Source: Escherichia coli (GTDB taxonomy: Bacteria > Pseudomonadota > Gammaproteobacteria > Enterobacterales > Enterobacteriaceae). Taken from it: a DNA stretch of 64,000 nt. Made by a program: the position numbers. Below, one piece after another: positions 12,001 through 15,000 of this stretch. The stretch lies in NCBI RefSeq assembly GCF_041248615.1, contig NZ_CP158427.1. The stretch is one strand, 5' to 3'. Each line of letters opens with the position of its first letter. Position 1 is the first letter of the stretch.

Positions 12001-15000
12001 GCGGCCACGCTGTTTGATGTGCTGAATACCCGTGCCTTTTTCCGCTCCCCGAGCCATCAGATTGCAGAGTTCGCGGCCGGTGAGATTGGTGAGAAAGAGC
12101 ACCTGAAAGCCAGTCTGCAGTATTCCTACGGTGCTGATCCCGTGCGTGACGGGATATCAACCGGTAAGGAGATGGAGCGCCAGACGCTGGTCAGTTATTC
12201 CGACATTCAGTCTCTGCCGGATCTGACCTGTTATGTCACTCTGCCCGGACCGTATCCGGCAGTAAAACTCTCACTGAAATATCAGGCACGTCCGAAGGTT
12301 GCCCCTGAGTTTATTCCGCGTGACATCAACCCGGAAATGGAGAACCGTCTGAGTGCCGTACTTGCCGCAAGGGAAGCAGAAGGTCGTCAGATGGCCAGCC
12401 TCTTCGAACCGGATGTGCCGGAAGTTGTTTCCGGAGAAGACGTGACTCAGGCTGAACAGCCGCAACAGCCGCAACAGCCGCAACAGCCGCAACAGCCGCA
12501 ACAGCCGCAACAGCCGGTGTCTCCTGCCATCAACGATAAGAAGTCAGATTCAGGTGTGAATATTCCGGCAGGGGGGATCGAGCAGGAGCTGAAAATGAAA
12601 CCGGAAGAAGAGATGGAACAGCAACTGCCACCCGGGATCAGTGAATCCGGTGAAGTGGTGGATATGGCCGCTTATGAGGCATGGCAACAGGAAAATCATC
12701 CGGACATCCAGCAGCAGATGCAGCGTCGTGAAGAGGTGAACATTAATGTGCACCGGGAGCGTGGGGAGGATGTTGAGCCGGGAGATGATTTCTGATGATG
12801 AGTATCGCGCAGGTCAGATCGGCCGGAAGTGCCGGTAACTATTACACCGACAAGGATAATTACTATGTACTGGGCAGCATGGGAGAACGCTGGGCCGGCA
12901 AGGGGGCTGAACAGCTTGGGCTGCAGGGCAGCGTCGATAAGGATGTTTTTACCCGTCTTCTGGAGGGAAGGCTGCCGGACGGAGCGGATCTAAGCCGCAT
13001 GCAGGATGGCAGTAATAAGCATCGTCCCGGCTACGACCTGACCTTCTCCGCCCCCAAAAGTGTCTCCATGATGGCCATGTTAGGTGGCGATAAGCGCCTG
13101 ATTGATGCACATAACCAGGCCGTGGACTTTGCTGTTCGTCAGGTGGAGGCGCTGGCCTCCACACGGGTGATGACGGACGGACAGTCAGAAACGGTGCTGA
13201 CCGGTAATCTGGTGATGGCACTGTTTAACCACGACACCAGTCGCGATCAGGAACCACAGTTACACACGCATGCGGTGGTGGCTAATGTCACGCAGCATAA
13301 CGGTGAGTGGAAGACACTGAGCAGTGACAAAGTGGGGAAAACGGGGTTCATTGAGAATGTGTACGCTAATCAGATTGCCTTTGGCAGGCTCTACCGGGAA
13401 AAACTGAAAGAGCAGGTTGAGGCGCTGGGCTATGAAACCGAAGTGGTGGGTAAGCACGGTATGTGGGAGATGCCGGGCGTACCGGTGGAGGCCTTTTCCG
13501 GACGCTCACAGGCTATCCGGGAGGCCGTCGGGGAAGACGCCTCGCTGAAATCCCGGGATGTGGCGGCACTGGATACGCGTAAATCCAAACAGCACGTCGA
13601 TCCGGAAATCAGAATGGCTGAATGGATGCAGACGCTGAAGGAAACCGGGTTCGACATCCGGGCATATCGTGACGCGGCGGATCAGCGTACGGAGATCCGC
13701 ACGCAGGCGCCCGGGCCAGCTTCACAGGACGGGCCGGATGTGCAGCAGGCGGTGACACAGGCGATTGCCGGATTAAGTGAACGAAAAGTGCAGTTCACGT
13801 ACACGGACGTGCTGGCCAGGACGGTCGGCATACTGCCGCCGGAAAATGGTGTGATTGAACGGGCACGCGCCGGTATCGATGAGGCCATCAGCCGTGAGCA
13901 GCTTATCCCCCTCGATCGTGAGAAGGGGCTGTTCACGTCCGGGATTCATGTGCTCGATGAGCTGTCAGTCCGGGCACTCAGTCGTGACATCATGAAACAG
14001 AACCGGGTGACCGTACATCCGGAGAAAAGTGTCCCCCGGACGGCCGGTTACAGCGATGCCGTCAGTGTTCTGGCACAGGATCGCCCGTCGCTGGCCATTG
14101 TGTCCGGGCAGGGCGGTGCAGCCGGGCAGCGTGAGCGGGTGGCTGAACTGGTCATGATGGCCCGGGAACAGGGGCGGGAGGTGCAGATTATCGCTGCTGA
14201 CCGTCGCTCGCAGATGAACCTGAAGCAGGATGAACGGCTGTCCGGTGAACTGATAACCGGACGTCGTCAGCTGCTGGAAGGCATGGCCTTCACGCCGGGC
14301 AGTACCGTTATCGTCGACCAGGGCGAAAAACTCTCCCTGAAAGAGACGTTAACCCTGCTGGATGGTGCCGCACGTCATAACGTACAGGTCCTGATAACCG
14401 ACAGCGGGCAGCGAACCGGTACAGGCAGTGCGCTGATGGCCATGAAGGATGCCGGGGTGAACACATATCGCTGGCAGGGCGGAGAACAGCGACCGGCCAC
14501 CATCATCAGTGAACCGGACCGTAATGTCCGCTATGCCCGGCTGGCCGGAGATTTTGCGGCCAGCGTGAAAGCCGGAGAAGAGAGCGTGGCACAGGTCAGC
14601 GGGGTACGGGAACAGGCCATACTGACACAGGCCATTCGCAGTGAGCTGAAAACGCAGGGCGTGCTCGGACACCCTGAGGTGACCATGACTGCACTGTCAC
14701 CGGTCTGGCTGGACAGCCGGAGCCGTTATCTGCGGGATATGTACCGACCGGGGATGGTGATGGAGCAGTGGAACCCGGAGACACGCAGTCATGACCGCTA
14801 TGTGATAGACCGGGTGACAGCGCAGAGTCACAGCCTGACCCTGCGGGATGCGCAGGGCGAAACGCAGGTGGTGCGTATTTCCTCCCTGGACAGCAGCTGG
14901 TCGCTGTTCCGGCCGGAAAAAATGCCGGTGGCAGACGGCGAGCGACTGAGGGTGACAGGGAAAATTCCCGGACTCCGCGTCTCCGGCGGTGACCGCCTGC

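Follow-up and report, generated by a model that had tools for sequence, protein, structure and literature searches.

The C-terminal extension of F-like TraD coupling proteins has been described as unstructured and specificity-determining, and a variable 'QQP motif' was reported within F-like TraD by Lang et al. 2011 (Mol Microbiol 82:1071, PMC3245843, Fig. 8). The QQP region counts 5 residues in F (QPQQP, i.e., 1.67 units) and 23 residues in R1 (7.67 units), and F and R1 are each functional in conjugation (PMC3245843). In F TraD the segment A680-F717 is conserved and residues D710-F717 bind the tetramerisation domain of TraM (PDB 3D8A); the terminal phenylalanine fits a pocket of TraM, and the flexible tail that binds TraM thereby recruits the relaxosome (PMC7555446). 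[quoted passage not shown] The column "traD # of 9 bp repeats" of its Table 1 has values that include 2, 6, 7 and 14 for plasmids 0-8 SNPs apart, and the 9-bp repeat was the main source of indels among those plasmids (PMC7311658).

Here we analyse a 64-kb stretch of E. coli DNA (hereafter the window), which carries such a repeat within the traD gene of an IncF transfer region. The features discussed below are the following.

521-2062, minus strand: istA of the IS21-family element ISEc12, upstream of trbA.
2243-2902: DDE transposase ORF of 219 aa, upstream of trbA.
10597-12795 (stop codon included), plus strand: traD, type IV coupling protein of 732 aa, identified by its ORF, Pfam matches and an annotated relative.
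12271-12510, minus strand: antisense ORF of 79 aa, entirely within traD.
12418-12624, plus strand: predicted disordered linker of TraD, residues 608-676 (69 residues), containing the array (AlphaFold2).
12457-12516, plus strand: perfect tandem array, 6 x CAGCCGCAA followed by the partial unit CAGCCG, encoding (QPQ)6QP.
12625-12792, plus strand: conserved C-terminal tail of TraD, residues 677-732, ending in ...EDVEPGDDF, with near-invariant columns and predicted helices.
12795-18065, plus strand: traI, relaxase/helicase, whose start codon overlaps the traD stop codon.

The array shares with the QQP motif of Lang et al. the same protein, a Gln/Pro tripeptide, a length that varies from plasmid to plasmid and the same position, after the NTP-binding domain and ahead of the TraM interaction domain, since (QPQ)6QP occupies residues 621-640, upstream of the tail that starts at ~677. 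There is no difference in kind between the two, and the window allele of 20 residues (6.67 units) lies inside the published range. With the Salmonella plasmids it shares the 9-bp unit, the encoded QPQ and a location near the TraD C-terminus, but the window belongs to E. coli IncF, that is to another host and another backbone than the pSEN/pSLT-type hybrids (PMC7311658). The repeat and its variability have thus already been published. Our analysis adds arrays of up to 40.67 units, 18 length classes among 58 records, a comparison of zero-SNP backbones and a family-wide view of the linker.

Two broader classes of loci are also comparable. Like the coding VNTR or minisatellite loci of MLVA typing, the traD array is made of perfect in-frame units, changes stepwise by whole units faster than substitutions accumulate and has alleles that tell otherwise identical genomes apart; unlike them it is plasmid-borne and resides in a conjugation gene. 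To our knowledge, based on a non-exhaustive search, it is part of no typing scheme. Older literature reportedly compared traD repeat numbers between F and R100. The simple-sequence contingency loci of Neisseria, Haemophilus and Campylobacter are likewise hypermutable intragenic tandem repeats. Their units span 1-8 bases, in lengths indivisible by three, or constitute promoter spacers, and they switch expression on and off, whereas the traD unit is 9 bp long, the frame is always kept and only the length of a linker changes.

The coupling protein itself was identified by several lines of evidence. All three Pfam matches are far over the curated cut-offs, namely TraD_N at residues 32-128 (2.3e-35), TrwB_AAD_bind at 172-561 (9e-114) and TraG-D_C at 419-541. 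The protein thus displays what is expected of an F-like TraD: a TraD_N membrane domain, a TrwB-type NTP-binding/all-alpha domain and a Walker A motif (GTVSTGKS), in which G192, G197, K198 and S199 are invariant across 42 homologues. The whole of the window's first 25 kb has a match in E. coli plasmid p14408_1 (NZ_LT599826.1), where the identical coordinates are annotated as coupling protein TraD (WP_000009360.1). The records annotated with WP_000009360.1 carry a traD of equal length in 16-kb surroundings that are sequence-identical to the window. Gene order is traG-traS-traT-traD-traI-traX-finO followed by an IncFII repA, and the traS-traT-traD-traI synteny is annotated in p14408_1 and ten further plasmids. 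Together, the Pfam matches, the tra gene order and the p14408_1 annotation locate the repeat in an F-like coupling protein, within its C-terminal extension.

Within traD, direct reading of the sequence finds six copies of CAGCCGCAA at 12457-12510, and the CAGCCG that follows at 12511-12516 is an incomplete seventh one. For Tandem Repeats Finder the repeat spans 12455-12516 with a period of 9, 6.9 copies, 100 % matches and no indels; its two additional bases are the AA of the GAA codon that precedes the array. The array is in frame with traD, (12457-10597) mod 3 being 0, and falls within the C-terminal extension of the 732-residue protein. The initial annotation had claimed at least six in-frame copies of a 9-base unit encoding (QPQ)n at 12457-12516, in the C-terminal tail of the coupling protein TraD; the sequence and Tandem Repeats Finder agree with the first point, and the Pfam matches, the ORF and residues 621-640 with the second. 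A perfect period-9 array of 60 nt is expected ~1.5e-26 times by chance in 64 kb of the composition of the window, of which it is the sole strong tandem repeat. The other Tandem Repeats Finder hits in the window are only two weak, two-copy repeats at 24893-24921 and 60253-60282, with periods of 14 and 13 and scores of 51 and 53. The antisense ORF at 12271-12510 was rejected as a by-product of the repeat, its N-terminal (LLR)n being the reverse complement of the array, and it is called in none of the annotated plasmid records fetched.

To place the array in the protein, TraD was modelled by AlphaFold2 from an alignment of 42 sequences, which gave good confidence for its membrane and ATPase parts. 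A helix is predicted at 579-603, ahead of the linker, and short helices at 690-700 and 704-714 after it, whereas residues 608-676 remain under a pLDDT of 50 (means of 26-32 in blocks of 10 residues) and consist of coil only. Between the near-invariant F603 and the near-invariant G659, the 42 TraDs hold 24-95 aa that are unalignable. Among the representatives, TraDs at least ~73 % identical (E. coli, Salmonella and close enterobacterial relatives) mostly show a Q/P run of 5-12 residues; a few TraDs at 73-76 % identity are devoid of it. In Klebsiella-type and more distant TraDs an unrelated, low-complexity stretch rich in Ala, Pro, Ser and Thr replaces the array, and the flanks are conserved. 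The model and the alignment consequently predict that the array sits in an intrinsically disordered linker of biased composition, of which neither the length nor the sequence is conserved.

The tail that follows is of a different nature. In the 42-TraD alignment its near-invariant columns are P678, G680, G685, D689, W696, R710, E712, E713, N715, I716, N717, E727 and G729, and it is acidic, Phe-terminated and identical to the tail of an F-length TraD representative of 717 aa (P0077). By analogy with what the literature reports for F TraD, this tail is probably the TraM-binding region. No PDB chain was matched in a sequence search by the C-terminal 171 aa of TraD; the TraD peptide of 3D8A presumably falls under the 20-residue limit of that search.

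A side observation concerns traD itself. The Walker A motif reads GTVSTGKS in the window and GTVGAGKS in most E. coli representatives, while Salmonella-type TraDs share STGKS, and around residues ~505-527 the window sequence departs from the KASEQ...GVSTGKDMER of the representatives. These two segments (residues 192-199 and ~505-527) suggest that the window traD could be a mosaic or recombinant gene.

To examine how the array varies among plasmids, 471 bases around it were used as a query, which matched 3,975 PLSDB plasmids, and an evenly spaced sample of 58 full-length matches was taken from these 3,975 records. The matched span takes 18 different lengths among the 58, and in 56 of them the difference in length from the window is divisible by 9. 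Since spans in a BLAST table give estimates, only sequence-verified values are quoted here as copy numbers. In the representatives fetched, the interval was measured between the conserved flanks CAGGCTGAA and GTGTCT, and the verified arrays range from 1.67 to 40.67 copies: 1.67 (two plasmids), 6.67 (the window), 9.67, 18.67, 19.67, 28.67 and 40.67. All of them measure n x 9 + 6 nt, that is whole units and an identical 6-nt partial unit. Every change seen is a whole 9-base unit, and the frame is therefore kept. The initial annotation had proposed that copy number may vary between plasmid lineages, to be checked by comparing repeat numbers across related plasmids; the comparison bears this out, the invariance that would speak against it being clearly not observed.

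Two synonymous types of unit were encountered, CAGCCGCAA (with CCG) and CAGCCACAA (with CCA). Long arrays are made of homogeneous blocks of one type; one of them has 35 x CAGCCACAA and then 5 x CAGCCGCAA. Such blocks of a single synonymous unit point to expansion at the DNA level rather than to selection acting on individual residues. Copy numbers are unevenly spread in the sample: the 1.67 class is the commonest (13 of the 58 records), which could reflect either the abundance of a lineage or selection. Just upstream of the array, at ~12409-12425, a distinct 9-bp (3-codon) indel polymorphism was noticed, where the lineage with CAGCCACAA units reads LFEPEVASGE(D/G)V and differs from the lineage of the window. 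Because of this separate 9-bp deletion, span-based copy estimates are one unit off in one lineage.

The speed of these changes was assessed on near-identical backbones. Over traD and the beginning of traI, 3,404 bases in all, the best 60 PLSDB matches are essentially the same as the window except for the array, the lengths of which equal 4.67 (2 plasmids), 5.67 (9), 6.67 (14), 7.67 (13), 8.67 (11), 9.67 (8), 10.67 (2) and 11.67 (1) copies. For eleven relatives, ~12-22 kb were fetched and compared with the window over 6,211 bases on the upstream side of the array and 9,827 on the downstream side; in pDA51106_120 the upstream comparison covers only 1,877 bases. Nine plasmids show 0 substitutions and 0 indels over the 16,038 flanking bases, and yet carry 4.67, 5.67, 6.67 (twice), 7.67, 8.67, 9.67, 10.67 and 11.67 copies. 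Two plasmids of one Osaka collection with zero-difference backbones, pE310_IMP6 and pE319_IMP6, carry 6.67 and 4.67 copies, respectively. With eight copy numbers on zero-difference backbones, the array is the fastest-changing site of the 16 kb of tra region compared, and is far more mutable than any other site compared. Its copy number outpaces flanking substitutions (eight alleles in nine plasmids over 16,038 bases), as is expected of a hypervariable VNTR. Fast change by whole units is the behaviour that slippage predicts, and these eight alleles lend strong, if indirect, support to the proposal made in the initial annotation that the repeat is slippage-prone.

The array is very probably a slippage-prone coding minisatellite in a length-tolerant disordered linker, located between the ATPase body and the probable TraM-binding tail of TraD. 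Since the 9-bp units share one and the same DNA sequence, slippage of strands in replication would gain or lose whole units, unequal recombination between units being an alternative route to the same outcome, and such gains and losses would occur at a rate far over that of point substitutions. Of the two routes, we infer slippage rather than unequal recombination. Each event would add or remove exactly one Gln-Pro-Gln and leave the frame intact. The linker would join the hexameric ATPase body to the conserved acidic tail that, according to the literature, docks onto TraM of the relaxosome, and because it would accept very different lengths, alleles would persist and copy number would drift both between and within lineages. 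The breadth of the length distribution, together with the fact that F and R1 are both functional, suggests that changes in length are functionally near-neutral. The array, a spacer already on record in a well-studied conjugation protein and apparently tolerant of changes in length, is of little biological importance.

Alternatively, although we consider it unlikely, the length of the Q/P spacer may itself be under selection, because it would set the reach or avidity of the TraM-binding tail and make the array a graded contingency locus. The properties tuned would then be how efficiently the plasmid transfers, its specificity or its sensitivity to those RNA phages that require TraD (R17/MS2). 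Lang et al. 2011 speculated in this direction, proposing that the requirements for R17 infection differ between F and R1 through TraD C-terminal variation and that phage resistance drives the diversification of type IV coupling proteins (PMC3245843). High mutability next to a protein-interaction tail is indeed the architecture expected of a tunable tether, and some copy classes are over-represented in the 58-record sample. However, no preferred length is apparent among the eight alleles found on identical backbones, the excess of the 1.67 class is explicable by the abundance of one plasmid lineage, and the unrelated linkers of 24-95 aa used by distant TraDs argue for loose constraints on length as well as on sequence. 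Somewhat less probable still is a graded 'tether-length dial', in which slippage would yield subpopulations whose TraD tails reach the TraM-relaxosome complex unequally. Were this true, transfer rate or specificity would be traded against susceptibility to TraD-dependent RNA phages, and within-host selection would shape copy number. Should relaxosome docking or RNA-phage sensitivity depend on array length, a possibility at which Lang et al. hinted, the array would offer a simple handle on plasmid transfer.

It is highly improbable that the variation in copy number is largely an artefact of assembly or sequencing, with collapsed or expanded repeats masking an array that is truly stable. The array does disturb assembly, as many 'partial TraD' proteins begin or end there and six Logan contigs terminate inside it, and homopolymer-type single-base errors are found near it in some records. 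Nevertheless, the array of the window measures 60 nt and those of its zero-SNP relatives 42-105 nt, which is under typical read length; the records, all of complete circular plasmids, come from a wide range of laboratories and platforms; and the differences are always clean whole units. Variation is moreover independently documented for the classical plasmids F and R1 (PMC3245843) and in hybrid assemblies of Illumina or Ion PGM plus MinION reads. Some copy-number calls for long arrays in public assemblies could still be wrong.

Perfect coding tandem repeats are the usual substrate of phase variation, and a few relatives have an unannotated traD and a length that is not a multiple of 3, as would be observed if slippage moved traD in and out of frame and switched conjugation on and off. 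This explanation has a negligible probability, because the unit is 9 bp and slippage by whole units is unable to shift the frame. The verified arrays all consist of whole units and the same 6-nt partial unit, and the frame breaks come from the loss of one base, either in the G6 run (12571-12576), at 13530 or inside a unit. A phase-variable on/off locus was consequently rejected, the relatives with lengths that are not multiples of three being traced to single-base indels. In pJJ1897_1 and CP072912 the arrays are intact and one G is lost from the G6 run at 12571-12576, leaving traD broken and unannotated; pJJ1897_1 lost a further G at 13530 (GGGG in traI). The G losses of these two independent records may be homopolymer sequencing errors or real frameshifts. 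In pRM10809-3 a single base is lost inside one repeat unit.

Equally negligible is the idea that the repeat acts as a DNA or RNA element (iterons, an internal traI promoter or a structured element), the peptide being incidental: iterated short sequences can serve as binding sites and 279 bases separate the array from the traI start further downstream, but the only promoter-like site is one weak match on the minus strand and outside the array, copy number varies 24-fold without any compensating change, the synonymous CCG and CCA units alter the DNA and preserve the peptide, and distant TraDs retain the disordered linker and not the DNA repeat. The hairpin potential of the array is no greater than that of shuffled controls (z = +1.22) and no promoter- or terminator-like site was detected within it, so that a DNA-level element was rejected.

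The array also acts as a breakpoint in short-read assemblies. In six Logan contigs (L018-L023, positions 1-308) the contig end lies 2 nt ahead of a partial traD whose start is in the array, and clusters of 'partial TraD' proteins with hundreds of members (P0014, P0019, P0020, P0021, P0059 and P0065) begin inside the array or end at it. A protein query with the C-terminal 171 aa returned nearly only fragments, because short partial proteins share most of its words, and the full-length TraD was used as query instead. By breaking short-read assemblies, the array yields many 'partial TraD' entries in databases. Differences in traD length should be checked for whole-unit change before functional divergence or pseudogenisation is invoked. 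As the fastest-changing site of the region compared, with eight alleles on zero-SNP backbones, the array may provide a cheap VNTR marker that can be sized by PCR and could split otherwise indistinguishable resistance plasmids in outbreak tracing.

Two further observations concern the surrounding tra genes. A full-length match to Pfam PF10624 (E = 6.6e-98) identifies the product of the ORF at 9084-9581 as TraS, the protein of entry exclusion, which every plasmid record fetched designates 'hypothetical protein' WP_000605861.1. The tra operon is broken between traF and trbA, in the segment 1-2958 of the window, which contains istA of ISEc12 and the DDE transposase ORF. Homology to intact tra operons begins at 2959, five bases ahead of trbA, and in p14408_1 traF and the proximal tra genes resume on the far side of the insertion. 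As the operon is interrupted at this point, the insertion may exert a polar effect on the distal tra genes, including traD.
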